Source: Squalus acanthias (Eukaryota). Taken from it: 64,000 bases of DNA. The position numbers were made by a program, and so were the translations under genes. Numbering within the stretch: position 1 is the stretch's first letter; the number at the start of each line of letters is the position of its first letter. The stretch spans positions 31,684,001 to 31,748,000 of the forward strand of contig CM059432.1 of assembly GCA_030390025.1 (NCBI GenBank), in the 5' to 3' direction. Of this stretch, positions 2,070 to 60,289 are shown piece after piece. The notes beneath the pieces are model-generated. The model was not told where the DNA came from. It did no database searches and saw only the letters and a program-made list of their open reading frames with translations.

Positions 2070-2394
2070 AAAGACTTGCGTTTATATAGCGCCTTTCACG
2101 ACCACCGGATGTCTCAAAGCGCTTTACAGCCAATGAAGTACTTTTGAAGTGGAGTCACTGTTGTAATGTGGGAAATGCAGCAGCCAATTTGTGCACAGCA
2201 AGGTCCCACAAACAGCAATGTGATAATAACCAGATAATCTGTTTTTGTTATGTTGGTTGAGGGATAAATATTGGCCAGGACACCGGGGATAACTCCCCTG
2301 TTCTTCTTCAAAATAGTGCCATGAGATCTTTTACATCCACCTGAGAAAGCAGATGGGGCCTCGGTTTAACGTCTCATCTGAAAGACGGCACCTC
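2070..2394 (-). mobile_element. Deu-domain SINE (SacSINE1-like), 3' part; 5' part lies at 15260-15397, split by the provirus
   Basis: Reverse complement matches the intact + strand copy at 62542-62995. Removing the provirus and one CCTC restores ...AAAGACGGCACCTCCGACAGTGCAGCACTCC... Confidence 0.85.
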
Positions 2395-2970
2395 TGTAGA
2401 ATTCGCAATATATCGCGATTTTATTAATAAGGAGAAAAACACAGAGTTTCGTTCAAACAGCTTTTATTTCAGCAGAATGCTGTCAGGTTTCAAAGTGGAC
2501 ACAAGCAGCTTGTAAAATGGCCGCCGCACCTCGTGGCGGAACATTCTAGACTTTTCGACAGGCAGACAAGATGGCGTTCCAATAAACATTTGTGCAAGAT
2601 CGATTAAGACTCAGCACATTGAAGATAATACACGAGACATCATGGGTTTACAGTATACACATAAATACTGAAATCGGTCTCCCAGGTACGAATGAAAGCT
2701 ATTGTACCAAGTAATCAAGAGCCCATCCAAAGACATTAATATGTAAAATCCCAACGACTCTACGATGAGAGAGCCGTTAGCGGGTAGTTACAGAAAACAC
2801 TTGGAAGCCCCAAAACCCCTCCAGGGAGAACACCGACCGATTAAACAATGGGAGAAATATTAACAGGTACTCAGACATTTACGAGTAGCCCCGAAACCCA
2901 TTAAAAACGGAGATCACCCTATACAAGACATTTGAGCGCCAAACCCTAACAAAAGAAAAGACATTAAGGT

Positions 2971-3004
2971 TGGGCGGGAAACGGAAGATTTTGTACTATA
3001 ATTA
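2971..3004 (+). promoter_or_regulatory. Putative LTR core promoter: GC box, ETS-like site and TATA-like box
   Basis: TGGGCGGG (2971-2978), ACGGAAG (2981-2987) and TATAATTA (2997-3004), followed by a pyrimidine-rich initiator-like tract. YY1-like AAAATGGCCGCC and AAGATGGCG motifs lie upstream in U3. Motif inference only. Confidence 0.5.
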
Positions 3005-3856
3005 CAAGCTCCAAACCGTCCATCTCTCTCTTATCCTCTTATCTTGCTGGTGTTCATCCTCGTGGCTGCTCCTGTGCTCTTGACTCGCCGTCTTGTTCCT
3101 GCTTGCCTCGTGTCTCTTTTAAAAGACTGTTGAACTTTGTGATCCGCTCGGATCTACCTCGTGTCGTGTCGCGAAGACCTGTGTAGAACTGGGCTCTGAA
3201 GCCTTGAAGCGGGCGCACCATTCCGATAAGTCGGTAAACGGTGTCGGAACCGAAGGCCCAAGACGAGATGAGATGAGATGAGATGAGATGAGAAGAGAAG
3301 AAGACCATACTTATCGCCACGGTCAGTAAGCCCCGACCGCGCCTGTAGGTCGAATAGACATTTTCCTTGCCAGGAAGACTTCTTTGAGTTCTACAGAACT
3401 GACACAGGAAGACTCTTCTTCGAGTTTTATCGAACCGGTGTGAGGGCACAGGAAGACTCTTTTTTTGAGTAGAGTCGGAACTCCGAGGACAACACAGATC
3501 TTCATGACAGCAGACGTTCCAGCCTGCTAGCCGGAGCAGAACGAGTAAACAAGTGGGGCCAGGAGACCCCCTGATCGACACGTGGGTGCTGCGGTGAAAA
3601 ACATCCGATCAGAGTTTTCGGAATTCTCCGAGTTATCACGAGTGGTGAGCATGAGTCTCGAATCCTACGAATCTAGCTAGGACAGATATTGATAGGGGAG
3701 GGTTTCAAGTATTAAGGATAATTGTAATGTGTGCCCCCATTTACGGTGTGTCATTCGTTCCTCGTTTCCCTGAAATTAGTTACATAACTGCGTGTAAGAT
3801 TGTACTGTCATGAATCTGTGCTTATGACATGTATTTCGTAATCTTAAGTATTATGC

Positions 3857-3862
3857 AATAAA
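3857..3862 (+). terminator. Putative LTR polyadenylation signal (3' LTR copy at 15007-15012)
   Basis: The only AATAAA I found downstream of the TATA-like box within the LTR. Confidence 0.5.
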
Positions 3863-4109
3863 GATTTTCCATTTCGTACCATTCAACCGAGTCTACCTGA
3901 GTTTCATCTCCATTACTGCTCTCGCATCTAAGTCCAGTGTCTAGAACCGTAAGGGCGAGTGGGTCGAACCACTCACAGGTGTGTCTAGTGCTCCCAGACT
4001 GGCTGGAGACCAGAACAGGCAATAAGGCCTAAACCCGCACTAGCATCCAGGCTGCACAGAGCCACACGAATCTCACAGGCTGAGAGACGGTCAGAAACCC
4101 TTACAGAAA

Positions 4110-5915
4110 ATGGCGACCGCGGCAGGACACTGGCAGCGAGAGGGTAGTGTGTTAGACTTTGGTGTGAATGTACGAAATGTTATGCAGGAAAAGATAGCAG
4201 ATTATGTGTTCGGAAAGGTAAATCTAACTAAGAAATGGATAAGTGACCTGTTAGCGGATAAGAGTCCACTAGAGGCAGCCGAGAGGTGGACAGATAGTAA
4301 GGAACATAAAAAGACAGTCGAGAAAGCAGTCTGGTTAATGTGTTACAAAAGGCAGGTCCAGATTTCAAACCAAGTCATTACAGCGCAAACAGCTCGGATC
4401 AGGCATTTAGAGGAGGAAATGGATGAGAAGGTCTCTGGAGGGGAGTTGCTCATTAGGAATTTAAGTGTGCTGCACCAAGAACGCCAGGAAATCACCAGTC
4501 ACCATAAAACAAGGATAGATTACCTCGAGTGCCAGGTCACTGAGGCAAAGTTAAGTGAGGGCAGACTAAAGGAACGATGTGCCCGCCAAGCTGCCCAGAT
4601 AAGAACCCAGGAAGAGAGCTTAACGGGGGTTAGGGCGGCATATAAGTTGTCCCTTGAGGATAAGTTTCAGGGGGCCGATCATAGCGCCTGCCAACAGGAG
4701 ATAGAGCACCTTAAAAGGGCCGTGAACAAAGCGCACGGCATGGTGTGCCTTATCAGTCCGTCAGCACACCAGCCGCTAGTAAATGAGGAGTTTCAGAAAT
4801 CCCCACCAAGTAAAGCAAAGGAAGTATTGGCCACTGCGCCCTCCACGCCACCCAGCTATTCGGAAACCTGGGTAAGGGAGGAAGTAGTGGAAGAAACGAA
4901 AGAGCCCACTGAGGGAGAAGTGGAAAAGGGACCGTTGTATCCGGTAACGGGTATAAAAAGGGGCCCAAACAGAAACGGGGAGGAAGAAGGGGTTCTCCTC
5001 AACCAGCTTGTGTTGCCTCACAGCTCACACCAGCTGAGAGTTATGATAAATCACGTACGGAAGCTGACCGAGTCAGACGACCCTTCCGTACATTTCAGAG
5101 AAATTGAGCAAACCGCAGCCATCAACGGCTGCGATGATGGGGAAACAGCAAAAATACTGTTATTTTCGTTAGGCAGTTCAATCCTTCAGTGTCTCTCGGA
5201 CGAGAGCAAGAGGGGAACCAAGACTTATGAGGCATTGAAAAATGAGGTCCTAGAAGTGTTGGGGGCGGACGATGAAGGTCCGTTTGCTAGAGTGGGACAG
5301 ACAGTGCAGATGGAGGGAGAACCCCCGAAGGTTTTTGCCGACAGGCTGTGGCCAGTATATCAGCGCAGCTGTCCAGGTGCGCCAGAGCGCGACGCCGTGG
5401 ACGGCGCCGGTTTAAATCATTGGCTCAGGTGTATAGTAGCCAACAGTTTGCCAGCCGTCAGAGAACAGGCAAAGGCGTGGTTTGATCCCAATGACCCCAA
5501 CATTACGGAAGACTCGGTCTTGAATCGACTCACGATAGGATATCGCAATATCAGGGGTATGGGAACACGTCCCCTTAAGGGAAAAGTACATGAGGTACGA
5601 CCCGCAGCCCCGGCTCAAAGGGAGTGGCATCAGGAGGGTAACCGCGCCCCGCAGGCAAGTAATGCTTGTTACGGGTGTGGGAGGACAGGGCACTGGCGCA
5701 AGAACTGCAGGAACCCTTGGAAGGATTCCAGGGATAAAAATCCCGCAGCCCGAGCCCAGATGCCTGTCTCTGTTAGGGAAGCTAGTGCACCCACCCCTCC
5801 CGACGACCTCGAATCAGTGTTGGGAGCCATGCGCAACTTCATGAGTGCGCATGGAAAAGTGGCGGTTGCTACCGGCCCCGTAGGTGCCGCAGGACCGTCT
5901 AACCAGACCCAATGA
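4110..5915 (+). CDS. gag: Gag polyprotein (601 aa)
   Basis: Open ORF with strong Kozak context (AAAATGG), an N-terminal coiled-coil-like region, a PPSY motif (4848-4859), a putative capsid region and a CCHC knuckle CYGCGRTGHWRKNC. Ends TGA at 5913-5915. Confidence 0.92.
   Translation: MATAAGHWQREGSVLDFGVNVRNVMQEKIADYVFGKVNLTKKWISDLLADKSPLEAAERWTDSKEHKKTVEKAVWLMCYKRQVQISNQVITAQTARIRHLEEEMDEKVSGGELLIRNLSVLHQERQEITSHHKTRIDYLECQVTEAKLSEGRLKERCARQAAQIRTQEESLTGVRAAYKLSLEDKFQGADHSACQQEIEHLKRAVNKAHGMVCLISPSAHQPLVNEEFQKSPPSKAKEVLATAPSTPPSYSETWVREEVVEETKEPTEGEVEKGPLYPVTGIKRGPNRNGEEEGVLLNQLVLPHSSHQLRVMINHVRKLTESDDPSVHFREIEQTAAINGCDDGETAKILLFSLGSSILQCLSDESKRGTKTYEALKNEVLEVLGADDEGPFARVGQTVQMEGEPPKVFADRLWPVYQRSCPGAPERDAVDGAGLNHWLRCIVANSLPAVREQAKAWFDPNDPNITEDSVLNRLTIGYRNIRGMGTRPLKGKVHEVRPAAPAQREWHQEGNRAPQASNACYGCGRTGHWRKNCRNPWKDSRDKNPAARAQMPVSVREASAPTPPDDLESVLGAMRNFMSAHGKVAVATGPVGAAGPSNQTQ
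4111..4128 (+). other. Primer-binding site, tRNA-Arg(TCG)
   Basis: TGGCGACCGCGGCAGGAC is the 18-nt reverse complement of the 3' end (...GTCCTGCCGCGGTCG-CCA) of vertebrate tRNA-Arg-TCG as I recall it. It sits 5 nt (GAAAA) after the LTR. Confidence 0.85.
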
Positions 5916-8900
5916 CTAGAGCCCGCGCAGCCCGTCTACCTGTGTCCGCTCAGCTATGATGCGTGGAAGCGACCCCTGGTGGAAATGGAGGTAGAGAAAC
6001 AGAAGGGTAGTTATTTGTTAGACACGGGAGCTTCTTGCACCGTGATTCATACAGATAGCCCTTTTGACTCACCGCTATCTACCAAGGTCCCATTCACATT
6101 AGCGGGGTTCACGGGAAAAGAACAGGCTGGCGCGTTCTCCTTTCCGCTATCCATTCGTTTGGGGGCACTTCACATCAAGTGGAAGTGCATATTGATGGAA
6201 TGGCAGGAGGGGGGTGGAAGAGGTATCCTCGGGTCCGATCTTCTATCAGGACACGGGATCCTCGTGGACCTCAGAAATCATTGTCTCTGGGGGGCTAAGA
6301 GTGAAAAAGGCGAGGTAGTGGTAATTCCGGGGGAGGAAGGAACAGGGGTCCTGTGTACCATGCAGCCATCCGGAGGCTACGACCTCGGGCTTATGGTCGC
6401 AGATGTCCCAACGGACATGCAAACGTACGTGTCAGATAATATGCACGCGTTTGCAACCCACAAGCACGATTGTGGGAGGGTTACCGGGTTTGAGGTCAGC
6501 GTAGATGGGGACCCCATGACCCGGCCCCAAAAGCAGTATAACTTCCCCAAAGAAGCAGAACCCGATATGGAGACAGCAATGTCCTCCTTGGTGCAGCAGG
6601 GCGTGTTGAGGCCAATAGCCACACACGTGAACTCCCCATTATGGCCGGTTAGGAAGCCGGATAATTCGTGGAGGGCCACGGTGGACTACAGAGTCCTTAA
6701 CAGTAACATTCCCGCCTGCGCGCCCACGGTAGCAGCAGTTGCTGACCTAATAGGGAGTATCCCAGCGTCCGCGACCACGTTCACGGTGCTGGATATCTCG
6801 AACGGTTTTTGGTCCATCCCGCTGCGGCGAGAGGACCAGTACAAGTTTGCCTTTACTTTCAAAGGACAACAGTACACATGGAACTGTCTGCCACAGGGTT
6901 TCCACAATAGCCCCAGTATTTTCCATCAGTGTATGGCAGGAAGTTTAAAGGAGTTTAGTCAGCCCCATCAGATAGTGCAGTACGTGGATGATTTGCTCCT
7001 GTTTACGGATTCAAGGGAGGAGCATGGACCACTGCTGGCCGAGTTATTGGAGCTGCTAGCGAGAAAGGGTTTTAAAGTAAACCCTAAGAAAGCACGTATC
7101 GGTCAGCAGGAAGTAAAATTCCTGGGACTGACCATTCGCGCTGGGGAAAGAGCCATAGATAAGGCTAGGAGGGAGTCGGTGCAAGAGTTACCGATTCCTA
7201 ACAACATAAGGGGTGTGAGGTCCTTCTTGGGACTGACCGGTTACTGCAGGGATTTTATCGAAGACTATGCGGCCACAGCGGCGCCGCTCCTCCGACTCCT
7301 CCATAAGGGAGTGGAGTGGTCTTGGGACGAGGGCTGCCAAGCAGCCTTCGAGAAGTTAAAAAGGGATCTGCAGACCGTGCCAGCCTTAGGGGCCATAGAT
7401 GGGGGGAAGGAGTTTTTCCTGGAGGTAGCTGCCAGCGGGGACAGCTTGAGCGCTGTGCTGCTCCAAGAGCGTCACGGCAAGCTGAGGCCGGTTGTCTATT
7501 CGTCCAGGGTGTTAACGGATGTGGAGAGAAGTTTCTCCAATTGCGAAAGGCACCTTTTAGCCACGCATTGGGCTGTGAAAAGATCAGCGATCTTCACAGG
7601 GCTCTCTCCCATCACTCTCCTCACCCACCACACACCAACTAAGATGCTTCTAGATGGGAGGATTAAAGATGGGACTGTAAGCAGCGTGCGTATTGCGCGC
7701 TGGACCCTTCTTCTTTCCCAGATGGATCTTAGAGTAAAAGGTCTTTGCGAGCCCAGGCTTGCGGCCAATTTGGTATACCCCGGTACAGCCCACCGATGTT
7801 CGGTGGAAGGGGTGTGGGACGTCAACATAGGTTTGCGGGCCGGGATACATCCCACTGGGCGCGAGATTTATGTTGATGGTTCTAGCACAGTATCTGCTGG
7901 CGAACGACTCACAGGGTGTGGAGTTTATGACCCTGCGGCAAACCTTGCCCTGGCGATCAAGCTCCCTAGCACCATGAGCGCGCAGCAGGCTGAGCTGTCT
8001 GCTGTGGTGTACGTTGTTACCCACCCAGACCTTTTCCCAACCCCATACACGATTTGCTCGGACAGTATGTTCACATGCAATTCGTGTACGGAATACCTGG
8101 CCATTTGGTCCCGCCGTGGATACACCTCCGCGGACGGGCGACCTTTAACGGTGAAGCCCTTGCTGGAAAAGATCCTAGCAGCAGTAGGGGAGGAAGGGGA
8201 GATTTTCATCCATAAGGTGAAAGCTCACTCCTCCACAGAGCCCCGTGGGGAGGGCAACCAGCAGGCGGATGCGCTAGCCAGGGAAGGTGCCCGCAACGGC
8301 ATTTTCTGGGACCCCTATGGGACCAGACCCATGGCAGTGATCCAAGGCAGGGACGGGAATCCCGGGAACTCCAGGGTAGCATTGCCCCTGGACCTTAAGA
8401 CCGTCCAAACCCAGGATCCCGCCCTAAAAGCAGTCCTAAAAACCATTGCTGAGGGGAAGCAAGTAGAGGGTCCGTACAGTACGGCAACCCTCTCAGTTAA
8501 GGAAGGCATGCTGTTCCGCGAGGAGCAGTGGGTTGTGCCGCAGCAGCACAGGAGGGAATTCCTCCAGTTGGCTCACGAGGGACCAGGGGCAGGGCACCCC
8601 GGGCCCGAGGTTACCTGGCAACGGGTAGAGCAAGCGGGATGGTGGCCAGGGCTCAGGGAACAGGTCCGAGAGTTCTGTGCAAACTGTCTTGTGTGCGCTG
8701 CAAACAACCCAGACCCCCAGAAAAGGAAAGTGCCCATGGGGCACGTAAGAAGGGTAGAGGGACCATGGCAGTCGATGCAGATCGACTATATAGGGCCCCT
8801 GCCCACCACCCAGGGAGGCTATAAATACTGCCTCGTCTTGGTGGATGTGTTTTCCAAGTGGGTGGAAGCCTTCCCCTGTCGAACAGCTACGGCACTGGGT

Positions 8901-10442
8901 ACTGCAAAAATCTTGGTCCGGGAAGTGTTCTCGCGGTGGGGACTCCCCCGTTTTGTGGAGTCAGACCAAGGGAGTCATTTCACCGGCCAGGTGATGCAGA
9001 ACACCCTCATGCTTTTGGGCATTGAAGGGAAGTGGCACGTAGCACACAATCCCCAGTCATCCGGGATTGTTGAACGCATGAACCGGACCCTGAAGGAGAA
9101 ATTGAGGAAAGAGACTAGGAACTCGCCCCAAAAATGGGCGAAAGTTCTGCCTTTAGTCCTCATGGGGGTCCGGGCCAGTCAGTCAAAAAGTACGGGGTAC
9201 TCCCCGCACGAGGTGATGACTGGGAGGCTCATGCGAACCCCCACCCATGTGCTAGCGCCGGTGCTCACTGAGGGTCAGCTCCAAGAGATAAGCAGGGACA
9301 AGTTCGCCCAGACCCTCTTGGAGCGCCTAAAACAGGTGTATGAGCAGGCGGCTGGGAACATGGGAAGGCAGCATCAGGGCAATCGCCTGTTGCCGGAACC
9401 CCGCAAAACGCGGGAGTGGGAAGTAGGAGACCAGGTTATGGTCAGAAACTACGCCAGAGTAGGGAGTCTGGAACCACTGTATATGGGACCCTACAATATT
9501 GTAGATAAGGCGAGTCCCATGGTATACGCCGTAAAGGTACCTCGGCGCAGTAAGTGGTTCCATGTAAACCAGTGCAAACTGTACAAGCCAGGTGCGCAAG
9601 GGAAAACCACAGGGGTAAACCCTGCGAGTGGGGACGCGCAGCCCCAGGTAGGACCACAAGGCACACAGGCAGGCAAAGCAGCTTGCATCAGGGGAGGAGA
9701 CATCCTGGAAAATTGTGAAACATTTTTGTGGGGTTGGGAGTCAGATGAGGGAGAGTTCCTGGAACTCGAGTCAGATGAGGATAGTGATGAGGACGAGTGG
9801 GGATCGGGGAACGCAAGGGTCGCCCCCGATTCAGGTATAGGGAGGACAGGGGCTGCAGATAGAGATCCACACAGGGTGGACACCGAGGCTGCAGGTCCCG
9901 AACACAGGAGGGAGGAGCTAGGGGAGGCGGAGCCAGCCGCTGTGAGACCACAGGGAGTGACGGTGAGAACCTCAGAGCCCGAGCCGCCCACCTTGAACGT
10001 CCTGCCCTCGGGGGAGGTAGGGATTGCGAGTGAAGGGCCGCCTGCTGGGCCGAGCAGGGCAGTGCCACAAGCTGCAAGTCCCGAGGTCAGGGAGGCGGAG
10101 TCAGGGGAGGCGGAGCCAGCGACTGTGGTGGGACCACAGGTCGTCCCGGCGAGAGTCTCGAACCCCGGTCCGTCGGTCCTGGGATTCCTGCCCCCGACAA
10201 CTCCTCGTAGGTCAAGTAGAGAACCCCAGCCCAGGAAGATGTGGGTATGGCCCCAGACGGTCCCAAGGCGTAGACTCAAGGTTAAGGCAGCCCAGATAGA
10301 ACCCAGTCCCATCGCGGCAGCAACAGGCTGCGGCAGATCAGAGGAAGGGGTCAGTGCAGCAACAGGCTGCGGCAGATCAGAGGAAGGGGTCAGAGCCCTC
10401 CCACCGTCGGGAAGAGCTCGCAGCAGCCTTCTCAGAATTTAA
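5916..10442 (+). CDS. pol: Pol (PR-RT-tether-RNase H-IN plus C-terminal extension), in frame with gag
   Basis: Protease LLDTGAS (DTG 6021-6029). RT LPQGFHNSP and YVDD (6981-6992). Degenerate RNase H LEVAAS (about 7419). Second RNase H IYVDGS..SAQQAEL..SDS..KVKAHS..GNQQADALA (7866-8290). Integrase HHCC, D(8784)-D(8964)-35-E(9072) and GPY module. No stop between 5916 and 10439. Confidence 0.96.
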   Translation, partial: LEPAQPVYLCPLSYDAWKRPLVEMEVEKQKGSYLLDTGASCTVIHTDSPFDSPLSTKVPFTLAGFTGKEQAGAFSFPLSIRLGALHIKWKCILMEWQEGGGRGILGSDLLSGHGILVDLRNHCLWGAKSEKGEVVVIPGEEGTGVLCTMQPSGGYDLGLMVADVPTDMQTYVSDNMHAFATHKHDCGRVTGFEVSVDGDPMTRPQKQYNFPKEAEPDMETAMSSLVQQGVLRPIATHVNSPLWPVRKPDNSWRATVDYRVLNSNIPACAPTVAAVADLIGSIPASATTFTVLDISNGFWSIPLRREDQYKFAFTFKGQQYTWNCLPQGFHNSPSIFHQCMAGSLKEFSQPHQIVQYVDDLLLFTDSREEHGPLLAELLELLARKGFKVNPKKARIGQQEVKFLGLTIRAGERAIDKARRESVQELPIPNNIRGVRSFLGLTGYCRDFIEDYAATAAPLLRLLHKGVEWSWDEGCQAAFEKLKRDLQTVPALGAIDGGKEFFLEVAASGDSLSAVLLQERHGKLRPVVYSSRVLTDVERSFSNCERHLLATHWAVKRSAIFTGLSPITLLTHHTPTKMLLDGRIKDGTVSSVRIARWTLLLSQMDLRVKGLCEPRLAANLVYPGTAHRCSVEGVWDVNIGLRAGIHPTGREIYVDGSSTVSAGERLTGCGVYDPAANLALAIKLPSTMSAQQAELSAVVYVVTHPDLFPTPYTICSDSMFTCNSCTEYLAIWSRRGYTSADGRPLTVKPLLEKILAAVGEEGEIFIHKVKAHSSTEPRGEGNQQADALAREGARNGIFWDPYGTRPMAVIQGRDGNPGNSRVALPLDLKTVQTQDPALKAVLKTIAEGKQVEGPYSTATLSVKEGMLFREEQWVVPQQHRREFLQLAHEGPGAGHPGPEVTWQRVEQAGWWPGLREQVREFCANCLVCAANNPDPQKRKVPMGHVRRVEGPWQSMQIDYIGPLPTTQGGYKYCLVLVDVFSKWVEAFPCRTATALGTAKILVREVFSRWGLPRFVESDQGSHFTGQVMQNTLMLLGIEGKWHVAHNPQSSGIVERMNRTLKEKLRKETRNSPQKWAKVLPLVLMGVRASQSKSTGYSPHEVMTGRLMRTPTHVLAPVLTEGQLQEISRDKFAQTLLERLKQVYEQAAGNMGRQHQGNRLLPEPRKTREWEVGDQVMVRNYARVGSLEPLYMGPYNIVDKASPMVYAVKVPRRSKWFHVNQCKLYKPGAQGKTTGVNPASGDAQPQVGPQGTQAGKAACIRGGDILENCETFLWGWESDEGEFLELESDEDSDEDEWGSGNARVAPDSGIGRTGAADRDPHRVDTEAAGPEHRREELGEAEPAAVRPQGVTVRTSEPEPPTLNVLPSGEVGIASEGPPAGPSRAVPQAASPEVREAESGEAEPATVVGPQVVPARVSNPGPSVLGFLPPTTPRRSSREPQPRKMWVWPQTVPRRRLKVKAAQIEPSPIAAATGCGRSEEGVSAATGCGRSEEGVRALPPSGRARSSLLRI

Positions 10443-10741
10443 AGGGGGCTGCCCTGAGAACGGGCGGCGCTGTACAGGAATAAGTTTAGGATAGGTTTCT
10501 AAGTTCATAGTTTAAGGTTAAGAATAAGTTTATAGTTTTAAATCAGGTTAAGTTTGTAGTTTAATTTTAACAGAAAATGGTAAAATGATGGGAGTTAGAG
10601 ATAGGTTTAGTTAAAGTTTATTTAGTGAACATTGAAGTTTACGTGAGGCGAGGTCAGGGGACCCGCTCACTCTTCACAAAAGCCAGAGACTCTTGCGAGG
10701 CTGGCTACCTCATTCTATCTGATCACAGGAACCAAGGAAGG

Positions 10742-13093
10742 ATGGAACGAATTCTAGTATTGCTCGCGGCAATCGGATGTGGATTGGCCTATCGAGGCCG
10801 CACCAAGGATGTCGTGGTGTTTGGATGCTCCGGGGACACGGCCCCTATCGCGGTGGATGGGACCGGAAGACGGGAGGCTGAGGAGACCACCACCTATTTC
10901 CACAAGGGAAGGTGGCCAGGATGGCTGGGAACGAACTCAACGGAGTATTCCAGCACATCGGGGTTTGCCTACCAAGAGACTTCTTTAATGTGCCCCAAAG
11001 TAAGGATCATCGCACCCAGGATCAGCGTCACCGTCGGCAAACGGATTTGTTTGACTTGTAGTGGGAATGTCCCATTGAGCCGATGGTGGTGGCTGCGAAA
11101 GCTGAGCAAAAACATGAGGAACTCTTCGGTCGAGTGGGAACGACTGGGTAATAATACCCATCGGACAATTACGGGGACAAACGGACAAGTGAGAGTCTGT
11201 TGGGACAAATGGTGGGAACCGGATGAGGGAATTTATGTATGTATGTGGGGGTCAAAGTACGTTTGCCCCAAAGGCATCTCCATATTTTTCATTAACCAAT
11301 GGCAGGATAACGGACAGGGGATGAGGTGGGATGCGAGCACCAGGGGGTGCGGAGCCCCATTCTCCCCGATCCCAGTAAATGCCACTGAACTCATTACGCG
11401 CCCACGCAAAGCCCTGCCCACGATTCCGGTGGTTCTAGCTGAAGAGGAAGGGTGCCCTAAAACTAGTAAGGGACCCGGGAATGGTTTGGTACTGGTCCCC
11501 ACAGACCAGATACTATTTCAGGGGGTACATTACGCGGTGGCCTCGGTGATTTTAAATCTCACCGAGGTGCGGTTACCAGAGTGGTGCCCCAAAAAGACGG
11601 AACAGTTGTATCAGGTCCTGTTGACCAAGATGTTCAGACAATTTTACGAATTCGATTTCGCGGAAATTGATAAAACAAGTTTGTACACCGCACCACATGA
11701 AGTTTTGGATCAAGTAGGGAGGCAAAGAAGGGGTGTAGTGAACGACGTGTTCACTGCTTTTAACACGGGTACATCTGTGGTCAACGCTCTAGACAGTGTG
11801 GAGCTGCAGACCCAGATTAATGGTCTAAAGACGCAATTAAAAGACATTCTAACAGATGAGAATAAAGTGGTAGGGTCGGGTTTACACGAGGACCAAGCCA
11901 TGACTCTCCATTTAAAGGAAATTATAGCAGAGCTAGAGAAACACGCGAGAACGGTAAATGCCCTGATTAGGGAAGATCGGAATGCATCCGATCAAGCTGC
12001 GCAGAATGAGGTGTGCGTGCTTTACGGGGCGTGGTTACTGGGCGAGGGCCGCAGTAATTTGGAGGATTTAAAACAAGGTTTGGTCCCGTCCTGGATAAGT
12101 AACAAACACCTGCGGACGCTCCACCCTTTTCAGAACGCATTAAGTCCGTGCCAGCTCAGGCTAGCTTCAGAAGCATACCCAGTCCCCGTGGACTGCGGAC
12201 GATCAAACCATACTATCATGGGTATAGTTTTACGTATGCCGGTTTTGGGCGACACAGCAAAGCCCGCCCCGGTGTATCGGGTAGAGAACATTGGTGTCAT
12301 TCAGGGGGGAGCCCACATTCGCTATGCAGCGGTTCCACCCTACGTCATCCGCTGGGAGCAAACGATGACAGGTACAGATCTCTCTGGTTGTCGTGGCAGG
12401 GGAGCACACATAATACTGTGTCCCCAGCACTTGAATGCCTTTTCAACACCACAGTGCGGGTTCAGAACGGCTGGCGCCAAGTCCATGAATTGCACCATGG
12501 AGGCAATGGCACAAGATCATGTGCCTCCGCAGGTAGCATACATCGGGGGTGGAACATATTGTGTTACCACTGCAGCGCAACACTACCAGCATGGAAACCG
12601 TAGCCGGTGTCCGGTGAGTGCCAGCAGTTTCTGTTTCAAACCCAGGGCGGAAGTTCAAGTAGCACAACAGCGAATTGTCCCAATCCCTGAACCATCCACT
12701 GTTCATCTAACAGTAAAAGAGAATTTCACCGACTTGCAGCGATTCGTCGCGCATTTCGGACACCTCATTCCCCCTCTCCCTGAACACCTCACCAAGCTTT
12801 TAAAAGCCGTCGCGGTGTCACAAAAACATTTTTACACACTAGAGCAGAAAACTGTCGAAATAGGAACAGACATTCTGGATATAGTAATTCCACCGTGGTG
12901 GAATCTGTTCACCAATATTGAAGTGCCGTCATGGATCAGGATAGCCTCCCACATTTTAGTCGTATGCCAAGTTTTTATTGTAGTGTACCTATTGGTCGTA
13001 CATTGTAAAAGAGACAAACGCCTCACCAAGCATGAAAACACGGGAGAGTGGCGAGAACGTTACGTGCGCGTGCACGATGAAAGCACCGTGTAA
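10742..13093 (+). CDS. env: Env-like class I fusion glycoprotein (783 aa) with N-terminal Ig-like domain
   Basis: ATG 10742 in strong context just after a candidate acceptor (..CTATCTGATCACAG at 10728). Signal peptide MERILVLLAAIGCGLA, N-glycosylation sequons, furin site RQRR (11720-11731), fusion-peptide/heptad region, Cys-rich region, TM helix at about 12941-13000 and a short tail. Confidence 0.88.
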   Translation: MERILVLLAAIGCGLAYRGRTKDVVVFGCSGDTAPIAVDGTGRREAEETTTYFHKGRWPGWLGTNSTEYSSTSGFAYQETSLMCPKVRIIAPRISVTVGKRICLTCSGNVPLSRWWWLRKLSKNMRNSSVEWERLGNNTHRTITGTNGQVRVCWDKWWEPDEGIYVCMWGSKYVCPKGISIFFINQWQDNGQGMRWDASTRGCGAPFSPIPVNATELITRPRKALPTIPVVLAEEEGCPKTSKGPGNGLVLVPTDQILFQGVHYAVASVILNLTEVRLPEWCPKKTEQLYQVLLTKMFRQFYEFDFAEIDKTSLYTAPHEVLDQVGRQRRGVVNDVFTAFNTGTSVVNALDSVELQTQINGLKTQLKDILTDENKVVGSGLHEDQAMTLHLKEIIAELEKHARTVNALIREDRNASDQAAQNEVCVLYGAWLLGEGRSNLEDLKQGLVPSWISNKHLRTLHPFQNALSPCQLRLASEAYPVPVDCGRSNHTIMGIVLRMPVLGDTAKPAPVYRVENIGVIQGGAHIRYAAVPPYVIRWEQTMTGTDLSGCRGRGAHIILCPQHLNAFSTPQCGFRTAGAKSMNCTMEAMAQDHVPPQVAYIGGGTYCVTTAAQHYQHGNRSRCPVSASSFCFKPRAEVQVAQQRIVPIPEPSTVHLTVKENFTDLQRFVAHFGHLIPPLPEHLTKLLKAVAVSQKHFYTLEQKTVEIGTDILDIVIPPWWNLFTNIEVPSWIRIASHILVVCQVFIVVYLLVVHCKRDKRLTKHENTGEWRERYVRVHDESTV

Positions 13094-13532
13094 TCGGAAA
13101 ATGGCGTCACTCCCGCTCGCCACGTGCGCCGCGGAAGTTTGTACTCGATCATGATTTTCAAAGACTGTAAATACGTTTGGAACTCGACATGTTTTAAGAG
13201 TTGGTGTTGATTATTTTTGGTAATGGTGTTGTAGTTAAAAATGATTGTTTGGTTTTGGGTTTTGTTTTTCCTTTCCCTGAATAAAAAATGTGAATATATA
13301 GGTGATACGAGAGGCATCGGCCTGGTTACGCCTGGAAGGAAAACAAGTGGTGTAAGTTTAAAGGCAAATAATGCCTACGGTACTATAAAATGTAATTTTC
13401 TTGGGAAATAAGGACGACGCAAAGACCCTAGAGAGTTTAAGTTATGGGATTAAATTTTCTGGATTCGGAGAAAATCGAGATAATATTGCTCACCACAATA
13501 TTTTTGATACGATAAGCGGAGTTATTCGCATC

Positions 13533-13544
13533 AACAGGAGGGAC
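13533..13544 (+). other. Polypurine tract
   Basis: AACAGGAGGGAC immediately precedes the 3' LTR. Confidence 0.75.
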
Positions 13545-15255
13545 TGTAGAATTCGCAATATATCACGATTTTATTAATAAGGAGAAAAACACAGAGTTTC
13601 GTTCAAACAGCTTTTATTTCAGCAGAATGCTGTCAGGTTTCAAAGTGGACATAAGCAGCTTGTAAAATGGCCGCCGCACCTCGTGGCGGAACATTCTAGA
13701 CTTTTCGACAGGCAGACAAGATGGCGTTCCAATAAACATTTGTGCAAGATCGATTAAGACTCAGCACATTGAAGATAATACACGAGACATCATGGGTTTA
13801 CAGTATACACATAAATACTGAAATCGGTCTCCCAGGTACGAATGAAAGCTATTGTACCAAGTAATCAAGAGCCCATCCAAAGACATTAATATGTAAAATC
13901 CCAACGACTCTACGATGAGAGAGCCGTTAGCGGGTAGTTACAGAAAACACTTGGAAGCCCCAAAACCCCTCCAGGGAGAACACCGACCGATTAAACAATG
14001 GGAGAAATATTAACAGGTACTCAGACATTTACGAGTAGCCCCGAAACCCATTAAAAACGGAGATCACCCTATACAAGACATTTGAGCGCCAAACCCTAAC
14101 AAAAGAAAAGACATTAAGGTTGGGCGGGAAACGGAAGATTTTGTACTATAATTACAAGCTCCAAACCGTCCATCTCTCTCTTATCCTCTTATCTTGCTGG
14201 TGTTCATCCTCGTGGCTGCTCCTGTGCTCTTGACTCGCCGTCTTGTTCCTGCTTGCCTCGTGTCTCTTTTAAAAGACTGTTGAACTTTGTGATCCGCTCG
14301 GATCTACCTCGTGTCGTGTCGCGAAGACCTGTGTAGAACTGGGCTCTGAAGCCTTGAAGCGGGCGCACCATTCCGATAAGTCGGTAAACGGTGTCGGAAC
14401 CGAAGGCCCGAGACGAGATGAGATGAGATGAGATGAGATGAGAAGAGAAGAAGACCATACTTATCGCCACGGTCAGTAAGCCCCGACCGCGCCTGTAGGT
14501 CGAATAGACATTTTCCTTGCCAGGAAGACTTCTTTGAGTTCTACAGAACTGACACAGGAAGACTCTTCTTCGAGTTTTATCGAACCGGTGTGAGGGCACA
14601 GGAAGACTCTTTTTTTGAGTAGAGTCGGAACTCCGAGGACAACACAGATCTTCATGACAGCAGACGTTCCAGCCTGCTAGCCGGAGCAGAACGAGTAAAC
14701 AAGTGGGGCCAGGAGACCCCCTGATCGACACGTGGGTGCTGCGGTGAAAAACATCCGATCAGAGTTTTCGGAATTCTCCGAGTTATCACGAGTGGTGAGC
14801 ATGAGTCTCGAATCCTACGAATCTAGCTAGGACAGATATTGATAGGGGAGGGTTTCAAGTATTAAGGATAATTGTAATGTGTGCCCCCATTTACGGTGTG
14901 TCGTTCGTTCCTCGTTTCCCTGAAATTAGTTACATAACTGCGTGTAAGATTGTACTGTCATGAATCTGTGCTTATGACATGTATTTCGTAATCTTAAGTA
15001 TTATGCAATAAAGATTTTCCATTTCGTACCATTCAACCGAGTCTACCTGAGTTTCATCTCCATTACTGCTCTCGCATCTAAGTCCAGTGTCTAGAACCGT
15101 AAGGGCGAGTGGGTCGAACCACTCACAGGTGTGTCTAGTGCTCCCAGACTGGCTGGAGACCAGAACAGGCAATAAGGCCTAAACCCGCACTAGCATCCAG
15201 GCTGCACAGAGCCACACGAATCTCACAGGCTGAGAGACGGTCAGAAACCCTTACA
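13545..15255 (+). repeat. 3' LTR (1711 bp)
   Basis: Copy of 2395-4105 at a constant offset of 11150, followed by TSD CCTC. Confidence 0.97.
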
Positions 15256-17146
15256 CCTCCGACAGTGCAGCACTCCCTCAGCACTGCACTGGAGTTTCAG
15301 CCTAGCTTTATGTGCTCAAGTCCCTGGAGTGGGACTATGAACCCACAACCTTCTGACTCAGAGGCGAGTGTGCTTCTGAGTGAGCCACAGCTGACACTGG
15401 AGAAATTAGGGCAGGTGACCAAAAGCTTGGTCAAAGAGGTAGGTTTTAAGGACTGATCTGTGTCTGAGTTATGAAAAAGACTGTGGAAACTTTGACTTTT
15501 CAGCTTTCAAAGAAGGAGGCGGAAAAGTGATCTTTAAAATTATATCGTAGTATGGAAATCCAGAAAATTAATTCAAACTAAATTGTGCGAATAGAACAAG
15601 GAAATAGTTTTACACCAAAAAAGCAAATTTAGGACTTATGTCAGGAGGTTCTCCTTCACACAATTAGCAAATGAAGATGGATGGGCCTAGGACACTGCAC
15701 TGAGGAACTCCTGCAGCAATGTACTGGGGCTGATGACAGTGCAAGCAATTAACCAAATTCAAGTACTAAACTAGGGTTGCCAACTCTGGTTGGACGTTTT
15801 TGGAGTGGTTTCAACGCATGACCTCCTGCCTCCAACTGCCCCGCCTCCCATTGGTCACCCCATGTGTGCATCCTGGTGACACACCGACTTCAAATGCCAA
15901 ATGGCAGGCAAGTGGATGTCGATGCTTGGTTACCCAATTGGAAGATTCTTGAATATTAATCAAACAGGCTTCTGCACCAACCCCCCCCCACCCAATTTCT
16001 TCTTTTATTCCCCTATAATCTTTCTTCATGGTCACTTGCAGAATTGCCTGGGAGATTAATAATTCCTGGAGACTCCATGACAATCTGGGTGAGTTGGTAA
16101 CCCTAATTTAAACATAGGAACAGGAGAAGGCTGTTCAGGCACTCGATCCTGTTCCACCATTTAATTAGATCTGTCTGTTCTGTACCTCAACTTCACATTT
16201 GATCCATATCGGCAGCACGTCCCAAACCCGGGACCTCCACCACATAGAAGGACGAGGCCAGCAAGCGCGTGGGAACACCATCATCCCCAAGTTCTCCTCC
16301 AAGTCACACACCATCCTTACTTGAACAGATAAAGGGAAATCGTGTTTGACAAATTTATTCGAGTTTTTTGAGGATGTAACTAGCAGGGTAGATAAAGGGG
16401 AACCAGTGGATGTAGTATATTTGGATTTCCAAAAGGCATTCGATAAGGTTCCACATAAAAGGTGATTACACAAGATTAGGGCTCACAGGGTTGGGGGTAA
16501 TATAGTATCATGGATAGAGGATTGGTTAACGGACAGAAAACAGAGAGTAGGGATAAACGGATCTTTTTCAGGTTGGCAGGCTGTAACTAGTGTTGGGGCC
16601 TCAGCTATTTACAATCTATATTAATGACCTAGATGAAGGGACCGAGTGTAATGTATCCAAGTTTGCTGATGATACAAAGCTAGGTGGGACAGTAAGCTGA
16701 GGAGAACACAAAGGGCTGGATTTTGTCTTGGGGTCGGGTTGGGGTCATGTTACCCGCATTTCGTGTTGCCCCCCCCAACTCCAGATTAATGTGGATGAAT
16801 GATGCGATTTTAACTTAATTGGCCAATTGAGTTCCAACATGTGGGAACCCATGGCCAATGAGTTATTCCAGTCTGAAAGTCGCCTCCGATGACGTCATCA
16901 TTGCTGCTGCATTTAAGGTCTGCAACAAGCCTTGCTTCCTCTGCAGGCTGCCAAGCTTTTGGACCTCTAATCTAAAGGCACCTGCAGCAGGAATGGCCAG
17001 CCAACGGCCATGGGCTGCTCCCAGGTTCCATGAGGTTGCCCTTCAGGCTTTGGTGGATGGAGCAAGAGCCAACAGGGAGGTGCTCTTCCCCTCCTCAGAG
17101 AGGAAGAAGCCTCCCTAGCAGACAAAGGCTGTGTGGGTCCATATCG

Positions 17147-58514: not shown

Positions 58515-60289
58515 GGGGGAAAAATTCAGTTGGTTGCGCCTTCCGTTAGCGCCTTAAGAGGGCGCTAATGGGGCGCAAAGCATCGAGCGGCCAGGCGTGG
58601 CGAAGTTTGCGCCGCTCGCGAAATTAACTAGACATTTTGCGGCGGCGCTAAACACTACCGCCACGATCTCCTGCGCTGGCAGATCGTGACGTCAGTCGAG
58701 TGCGCAACGCCCCGGTAACGCCCCGGAGCGGAAATTGAGTGGCGCCCCCTGCCTTACCGCCTGACGCTAGCAACGACAGGTTGAGGGGAGCATTCTGCAG
58801 TCATGAAGGGAAAGGGGGAGCGCTATTTAAAGGTGACCGCTTCCTGCCTTTTATTGTTGGTGCCATTTTTGAACTACGCATTCTGAGAGAGAGAGAGACT
58901 TCTGGAGAGATTCAACGTTGTGTGAAGGAGTTTTGGGTACTGAGCAGCACTTTGCAGGTTCATTTTGATCTGCCATTCCTTGTATCGATTTAGAAGAGAC
59001 TGTGGGGGCTGCACTCTGAGCTCTTTGCCTGGTACTCTCCATTGTTCTTTCCAGCAGATTTGATGTGCAGGTCTCTCCAGGCCGAGATTCAAGGCTGCAA
59101 TGAGCAGGATGTGGATGGAAAGCAAGATTAACCATCCCCTTTAAGAACTGGCCCATGCCATTGTGTGTGTGTTCCATTGCTGACTGACATTACATGAGCT
59201 TCGCCAGCGCTCTGAGGTAGCGCCTCGCTCCTCGGCCTTTGCGCCTTAAGACAGGTGTGAAGCGCCTGATTTAGCGCTCCAATCACCTCCAGGGGCGATA
59301 AAAGTCAAGTTTGCAGTCGGTGGCGATAATTAGCGCCAGGCGCTAATCTTTGCGCCCGGCCGATAATTGCGTCCCAAATGGGGCGATACTGAATTTCTCC
59401 TCCATTAGGGGGAAAAATTCAGTTGGTTGCGCCTCCCGTTAGCGCCTTAAGAGGGCGCTAATGGGGCGCAAAGCATCGAGCGCCCAGGCGCAGCGAAGTT
59501 TGCGCCACTCGCGAAATTAACTAGACATTTTGCGGCGGCGCTAAACACTACCGCCACGATCTCCTGCGTCGGCAGATCGTGACGTCAGTCGAGTGCGCAA
59601 CGCCCCGGAGCGGAAATTGAGTGGCGCCCCCTGCCTTACCGCCTGACGCTAGCAACGACAGGTTGAGGGGAGCGTTCTGCAGTCATGAAGGGAAAGGGGG
59701 AGCGCTATTTAAAGGTGACCGCTTCCTGCCTTTTATTGTTGGTGCCATTTTTGAACTACGCATTCTGAGAGAGAGAGGGAGAGACTTCTGGAGAGATTCA
59801 ACGTTGTGTGAAGGAGTTTTGGGTACTGAGCAGCACTTTGCAGATTCATTTTGATCTGCCATTCCTTGTATCGATTTAGAAGAGTCTGTGGGGCCTGCAC
59901 TCTGAGCTCTTTGCCTGGTACTCTCCATTGTTCTTTCCAGCAGATTTGATGTGCAGGTCTCTCCAGGCCGAGATTCAAGGCTGCAATGAGCAGGATGTGG
60001 ATGGAAAGCAAGATTAACCATCCCCTTTAAGAACTGGCGCGTGCCATTGTGTGTGTGTTCCATTGCTGACTGACATCACATGAGCTTCGCCAGCGCTCTG
60101 AGGTAGTGCCTCGCTCCTCGGCCTTTGCGCCTTAAGACAGGTGTGAAGCGCCTGATTTAGCGCTCCATTCACCTCCAGGGGCGATAAAAGTCAAGTTTGC
60201 AGTCGGTGGCGATAATTAGCGCCAGGTGCTAATTATTGCGCCCGGGCGATAATTGCGCCCCAAATGGGGCGATACTGAATTTCTCCCCC
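58515..60289. mobile_element. Tandem dimer of a ~885-bp non-autonomous Harbinger-like element (58515-59403 and 59408-60289)
   Basis: Each unit has TIRs GGGGGAAAAATTCAGT...ACTGAATTTCTCC(C/T)CC and many subterminal GGCGC/GCGCC motifs. Outer 3-bp TSD TAT, internal spacer ATTA. Confidence 0.85.

Follow-up and report, generated by a model that had tools for sequence, protein, structure and literature searches.

The 64,000-nucleotide (nt) stretch of the Squalus acanthias genome analyzed here (contig CM059432.1, positions 31,684,001 to 31,748,000; hereafter the window) carries a provirus of 12.9 kb at 2395-15255, bounded by long terminal repeats (LTRs) of 1711 bp with TG...CA ends. The LTRs differ from each other at 4 of 1711 nt, all transitions, and the copy is young. 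Its gag, pol and env frames are all open except for a single UGA between gag and pol (Table 1). Our analyses support the hypothesis that Pol is very probably made by programmed type II (UGA-CUA) stop-codon readthrough at this codon.

Table 1. Features of the provirus and of its predicted gag-pol readthrough site (window coordinates)
Feature	Position	Strand	Description or basis
Target-site duplication CCTC	2391..2394, repeat 15256-15259	.	direct 4-bp repeat
5' LTR	2395..4105	+	LTR comparison; 1711 bp, TG...CA; TATAA 2997, AATAAA 3857
gag, 601 aa	4110..5915	+	ends CAA-TGA; coiled-coil region, PPSY late motif, capsid-like region, one CCHC knuckle
Primer-binding site (PBS)-like stretch	4111..4128	+	inference; starts TGGCG, overlaps first gag ATG
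Readthrough site (predicted), CAA-TGA-CTA-G	5910..5919	+	Beier-Grimm type II, UGACUAG
pol, in gag frame	5916..10442	+	protease, reverse transcriptase (RT), tether, RNase H, integrase, ~280-aa low-complexity tail
Stretch common to otherwise divergent families	5916..5966	+	contig matches end at 5947, 5966 or 5998
Candidate helix	5923-5929/5960-5966	+	folding prediction
Alternative predicted hairpin	5935..5995, outer helix 5935-5941/5989-5995	+	z-score not significant
env, 783 aa	10742..13093	+	signal peptide, RQRR at 327, transmembrane segment ~732-755, no CX6CC or immunosuppressive domain (ISD)
Polypurine tract	13533..13543	+	sequence
3' LTR	13545..15255	+	LTR comparison

Direct reading of the codons at the junction gives CAA (5910-5912), TGA (5913-5915) and then CTA G, as an earlier, sequence-only reading of the window had it. 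The gag frame runs stop to stop from 4044 to 5915, and pol continues in the same frame for 1508 codons. Counted to the pol stop, Gag-Pol comprises 2110 codons from the ATG at 4110, which agrees with the ~2110 aa in one frame to 10442 proposed earlier, or 2086 codons from the second Met (4182). The protease DTG starts at 6021, 35 codons past the UGA, again as proposed. The 21 codons counted earlier past the stop reach a GTG at 5979, and the first in-frame pol ATG lies at 5985, 23 codons past the UGA. The letters at 5913-5919 agree with the type II signal, UGA followed by CUA or CGG, and the conserved stop has a functional open reading frame (ORF) behind it, in frame; UGA-CUA is the defining context of type II readthrough (PMC3159437; papers are cited here for the portions of their text that were accessible). 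The junction is UGA-CUAG, and neither the UAG-G context of gamma- and epsilonretroviruses (type III) nor the UAGGGC of snakehead retrovirus (SnRV) is found there. Given the element's base composition, the chance of CTA after the stop is p ~0.012 and that of CTAG ~0.004; CTA accounts for 19 of the 2111 codons of gag-pol.

The stop recurs beyond this copy. Four of 24 sequencing runs, each with a different organism code, were compared over 5640-6240; their contigs show presence only, and one of the four runs is only guessed to be RNA. Bins over the stop are covered in all four runs, the 40 substitutions listed, out of 97, all fall outside 5842-5967, and paired one-base gaps at 5903-5907 preserve the frame and alter the codons just before the UGA. 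Divergent contigs in three of the four runs start matching only at 5910 or 5912, and their matches leave at 5947, 5966 or 5998. By eye, the letters upstream of these starts are open Gag-like tails that cannot be aligned to the gag described here, with a last gag codon that differs (CAA, ACA, TTA or GCA) and is always A-final; one such tail shares 10 of 11 residues with the C-terminus of the Gag homologue P0038. All 29 Gag homologues lack a Pol fusion, the longest being 628 aa. The two best full-length homologues, P0038 (47% identity) and P0040 (37%), end 1-2 alignment columns from the stop, as do all three members of P0040's cluster at this position. The stop is therefore not a private mutation: matches to contigs of divergent families start at it, and the Gag proteins of relatives end within two residues of it. 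The sequence-only reading had proposed checking TGACTAG in related copies and families: the stop and its 3' context are kept, with the Gag tail upstream unalignable, and the sense codon in other copies that would have spoken against readthrough is not borne out, since Gag homologues end at the same place. A search for related DNA in metagenome contigs and viral contigs returned 0 loci. In several relatives the gag stop is closely preceded by a PSAP late-domain motif, in place of which this copy has PPSY, further upstream.

A number of observations weigh against reading the junction as a conserved readthrough signal. As only 40 of the 97 substitutions are listed, rare variants at the stop could be present; a run of 60 nt free of variants has p ~0.011 if its place is fixed in advance and 0.36 if it may lie anywhere in the stretch, and constraint on the protease codons could contribute. 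By itself this gap is weak evidence, and the contigs that start matching at 5910 or 5912 are the stronger sign. We infer the identity of the TGA in divergent contigs from where their matches start. In the coelacanth gene model P0007 a Gag-like part continues into protease with no intervening stop, and 10 of 24 consensuses of lokiretroviruses (Loki) are annotated as fused ORFs, two of these ten having a sense codon before CTA (Wang and Han 2021, PMC7947760). Comparison with shuffled sequences gave no significant 3' structure near the junction. Finally, in Tca2 the sequences flanking the UGA between gag and pol failed to direct readthrough when assayed in yeast, and a minor promoter lay within them (PMC2194720).

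Under the readthrough model, most ribosomes on the full-length RNA would terminate at the gag UGA and release Gag of 601 or 577 aa, and in a minority a near-cognate tRNA would insert an amino acid at the UGA, favored by the 3' CUAG and perhaps also by the -1 A. Ribosomes past the UGA would continue in frame to a Gag-Pol of ~2,100 aa, from which the protease, beginning ~12 codons past the UGA, would excise itself; the readthrough fraction would thereby set the Gag:Pol ratio. By analogy, a readthrough level of 1-10% would be expected. UGACUAG gives at least ~1.3% readthrough in 23 human genes, with 3' structure needed only conditionally (PMC13517186).

The position of the protease bears directly on how Pol can begin. 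Counted from the stop, Pol residues 16-46 show an ungapped alignment with residues 5-35 of HIV protease (PR), whose residue 1 maps to codon 12 after the UGA (a single-sequence AlphaFold model of the protease, pLDDT 36, was too low for use). Because the protease starts at about codon 12, initiation at the first ATG (codon 24) would remove PR residues 1-12. Frameshifting by -1 or +1 was ruled out: no slippery heptamer occurs in 5700-5990 and both other frames are closed, the +1 frame by a stop at 5917 and the +2 frame by stops at 5900 and 5957. With the stop and its context kept, and neither a usable Pol start nor a splice joint seen, the earlier proposal that Gag-Pol is made by UGA readthrough is supported at the level of sequence.

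Pol could instead be translated from a separate RNA, whether spliced or started internally, on the pattern of foamy viruses or Tca2, with the conserved stretch acting as a splice or promoter signal. This is improbable. The AG at 5952-53 does have the best pyrimidine run near the junction (15/20) and, 38 nt before it, a candidate branch site resembling TGAC; the long leader contains 12 ATGs, and Tca2 is a precedent for a junction promoter (PMC2194720). That AG, however, is missing from a divergent family whose contig matches break off at 5947 (3 runs), and the first pol ATG truncates the protease. No joint ends near the junction, which a contig of the RNA-guessed run spans unspliced over 5877-6034 (contigs again showing presence only). 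In the Loki consensuses, with CTAG in four and CTAA in three, the position of the AG moves and the frame is kept (PMC7947760), and the spumavirus arrangement, with pol in another frame and its own ATG ahead of the protease, is not found here. The spliced pol mRNA that the sequence-only reading had named as its possible undoing is thus left with no splice joint seen at the junction and no usable Pol start of its own.

Non-canonical bypass, either by reinitiation at a near-cognate codon past the UGA or by a host-factor-dependent route other than tRNA readthrough, is quite improbable. It too can cite Tca2 (PMC2194720), and CTG and GTG codons are found 21-22 codons past the UGA, but the protease fold encloses these as well, and what is conserved is precisely an experimentally known readthrough context (PMC3159437, PMC13517186). 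Fused forms among relatives, namely the P0007 gene model and the Loki-Pfl (CGA-CTA) and Loki-Str (GGA-CTA) consensuses (PMC7947760), speak for the view that gag-pol was once fused and gained its stop by a nonsense mutation, CGA to TGA for instance, in this copy or family alone. Yet the stop is common to families with unalignable Gag tails and to Gag proteins at 37-47% identity, and Pol and Env are open in a copy whose LTRs are nearly identical; this highly improbable explanation is already largely refuted. Decoding of the in-frame UGA as selenocysteine is just as hard to credit, as the site is a linker and not a catalytic position. A comparison of 2390-15260 with Rfam at a cutoff of E = 1 gave three weak unrelated matches and no selenocysteine insertion sequence (SECIS).

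For programmed readthrough, help from GC-rich downstream sequence had also been suggested, and this part found no support. In six of the seven windows placed around the junction the predicted fold is no more stable than that of shuffled sequence (z +0.3 to +0.9), and the z of -1.3 to -1.55 for 5916-6065 is not significant. The 7-bp candidate helix starts at +11, ends where one family's match ends and dominates only in short windows; the alternative hairpin wins in windows of 78-143 nt. Neither is clearly retained in divergent families, one of which lacks the 3' arm of the hairpin's outer helix and another of which alters the 3' arm of the 7-bp helix. A pseudoknot combining 5923-5929/5960-5966 with 5935-5941/5989-5995 is topologically possible and unsupported. 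The strongest local fold in gag-pol lies at 6420-6479, between protease and RT (z ~-7; 30 shuffles, 210 windows).

The same motif appears in lokiretroviruses. Among the 24 Loki consensuses in the supplement of PMC7947760, as far as their junctions were read by eye, seven have TGA-CTA in frame with the pol N-terminus: Ofa, Cne, Pyo and Sau with TGA-CTAG, and Bsp, Dcl and Lro with TGA-CTAA, Bsp having a frame break further on. Tfu reads TGN-CTA, and the sense codons of Pfl and Str precede CTA (placed in Str by its flanking sequence). Oja, Sri, Ame, Sme, Pma and Xla are fused with no such motif seen, and outside the junction count are Npa and Xtr (fused or unseen) and Aro, Ape, Lch, Lca, Bpe and Rca (partial or unread). 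Every clear Loki gag stop seen is TGA-CTA. The accessible main text of PMC7947760 makes no mention of readthrough, stop codon, termination or frameshift. Judged from these sequences, the putative UGA-CUA signal is present in two distant retroviral lineages. Short motifs converge easily, and it is therefore a tentative and rather doubtful idea that UGA-CUA readthrough arose not twice by convergence but is a signal inherited both by lokiretroviruses, the sister group of the retroviruses sampled so far, and by an undescribed SnRV-related cartilaginous-fish lineage with an F-type Env. If true, stop-codon readthrough would be the ancestral Pol route of the whole group, and UAG-pseudoknot readthrough, frameshifting and foamy splicing would be later replacements.

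By its RT motifs the element appears to be SnRV-related, and it is neither a gamma/epsilonretrovirus nor a lokiretrovirus. The motifs PQGFH, QYVDD and DISNGFW match the SnRV row of the alignment in PMC7947760, the closest among the rows compared there. Pol is 33% identical over 713 aa to P0013, a bearer of SnRV motifs; among the Pol relatives that have names, frog and coelacanth models come nearest, with 43-45% identity. An RT tree was built from 51 rows, chosen from 126 RT regions among our own matches and holding no foamy, ERV-L or Loki reference. The RT lies outside the gamma/epsilon clade (100/99; it holds the MLV-like row, and clade labels come from motifs), in an open polytomy with P0013 among non-gamma/epsilon retroviral RTs. 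Lokiretrovirus membership was dropped on comparison by eye, the RT here having PQGFHNSP against PFG(Y)xNSPAEF in Loki. NSPAEF occurs 57 times in the Loki RTs of the PMC7947760 supplement, Loki RT motifs occur in none of the fetched proteins, and that paper's table carries no Loki mark for the cartilaginous-fish genomes consulted in it (5 rows). Pfam places RT_RNaseH at 497-602 and RNase_H at 650-792 of Pol; the LTR-gag-pol-env layout with tether and second RNase H, found in Loki and here, is common to all retroviruses.

Env looks F-type. Neither the CX6CC nor the ISD of gamma-type Env is found, and a fusion-peptide-like stretch and heptads follow RQRR. Its Atlas (language-model) features reach 0.93-0.95 to the Gypsy env, Baculo_F and Fusion_gly clusters, which is a lead only. 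Against the Mononegavirales F-like Env of Loki (PF00523, basic cleavage site), Env here offers the RQRR site and 0 Pfam matches; no PDB sequence match was found under E 0.86, and the single-sequence AlphaFold model (pLDDT 34) was too low for use. Three Env homologues were found, all inside chimeric skate and sawshark gene models, at 62-78% identity, which points to a cartilaginous-fish host. The N-terminal part (10742-11400) has a weak match to the Ig domain of a junction adhesion molecule (E 0.86) and is possibly an Ig-like receptor-binding domain. An SnRV-related Pol together with an F-like Env in one element was not found described in the literature searched.

Several other features of the window were recorded. 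The LTR is very long, and the positions of TATAA and AATAAA imply an ~850-nt R with short tandem repeats. The first gag ATG, 5 nt past the LTR, has a strong Kozak context and overlaps the TGGCG of the PBS-like stretch, which may be tRNA-Ser-like. The 37%-identical Gag relative also starts MATAAG, and the second Met is conserved in both close relatives. With 12 ATGs ahead of gag, its translation may need shunting, internal entry or splicing. The post-integrase tail (9590-10442) is acidic and Pro/Ala-rich with short repeats, and an opposite-strand ATG ORF of 273 aa lies over it at 9491-10312. The T-rich pol-env gap (10443-10741) holds candidate acceptors at 10572-73 and 10727-28, and ACAGAAAATGG is present both in this gap and at the LTR/gag boundary. 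Far downstream, 58515-60070 is a near-identical repeat (~885-bp period, 97-99%) adjoining remnants like long interspersed nuclear elements.

Readthrough at a retroviral gag-pol junction is a known strategy; the new part is its UGA-CUA(G) context. The sequence-only reading had pointed to UGA-CUAG; UGA itself had already been described at such junctions, among others in XtERV-S (PMC8278194). UGACUA occurs at none of the retroviral gag-pol junctions in the accessible text of a 2026 review (PMC13517186), in which 'loki' does not occur either and in which fish and amphibian UGA junctions share no common context. Nor was anything on a UGA-CUA(G) junction found in the accessible portions of PMC9040795, PMC12440569, PMC8310308, PMC12193657, PMC10435555, PMC5210030, 10.1101/2024.03.25.586437 and 10.1101/2021.11.23.469661. 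We found no paper on a UGA-CUA(G) retroviral junction, though one could be mentioned in sources beyond the reach of this search, among them subscription papers, repeat databases and the supplements of preprints. Mechanistic knowledge of retroviral readthrough comes only from the gammaretroviral UAG and pseudoknot signal, and a conserved UGA-CUA(G) provides a testable hypothesis for Pol production in two deep branches. It would also account for gene callers truncating these Pol proteins at an internal Met. For studies of Gag:Pol balance, the elements would provide natural UGA/sense-codon pairs like those of alphaviruses.

Among known systems, members of the gamma/epsilon/SnRV branch typically have gag and pol in one frame (PMC1224870). 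SnRV and class III-related endogenous retroviruses such as XtERV-S, along with SSSV, ZFERV and the cane toad endogenous retrovirus, share the in-frame stop with this element. The letters differ: UAGGGC in SnRV, UGAAGA in SSSV, UGACGA in ZFERV and UGAAGU in the cane toad endogenous retrovirus (PMC13517186), against UGACUA(G) here. XtERV-S has a TGA junction like this element but a gamma-type Env (PMC8278194). Gamma- and epsilonretroviruses (MoMLV, WDSV) likewise place a stop between zinc knuckle and protease DTG in one frame, but theirs is UAG-G with a pseudoknot (type III), and the RT here falls outside their clade. Lokiretroviruses share the LTR-gag-pol-env layout, dual RNase H, a basic cleavage site in Env and perhaps the F-like type of Env itself, and differ in their PFG(Y)xNSPAEF RT from this element, with its PQGFHNSP RT and CCHC knuckle in Gag. 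The human genes OPRL1 and MDH1 have the same UGACUAG context. At the alphavirus nsP3/nsP4 opal codon (Sindbis, chikungunya virus), likewise type II, UGA-CUA readthrough gates the polymerase and some relatives have CGA for UGA, as Loki-Pfl does here; in this element the signal would sit instead at a retroviral gag-pol junction, with a 3' stem-loop that is only predicted.

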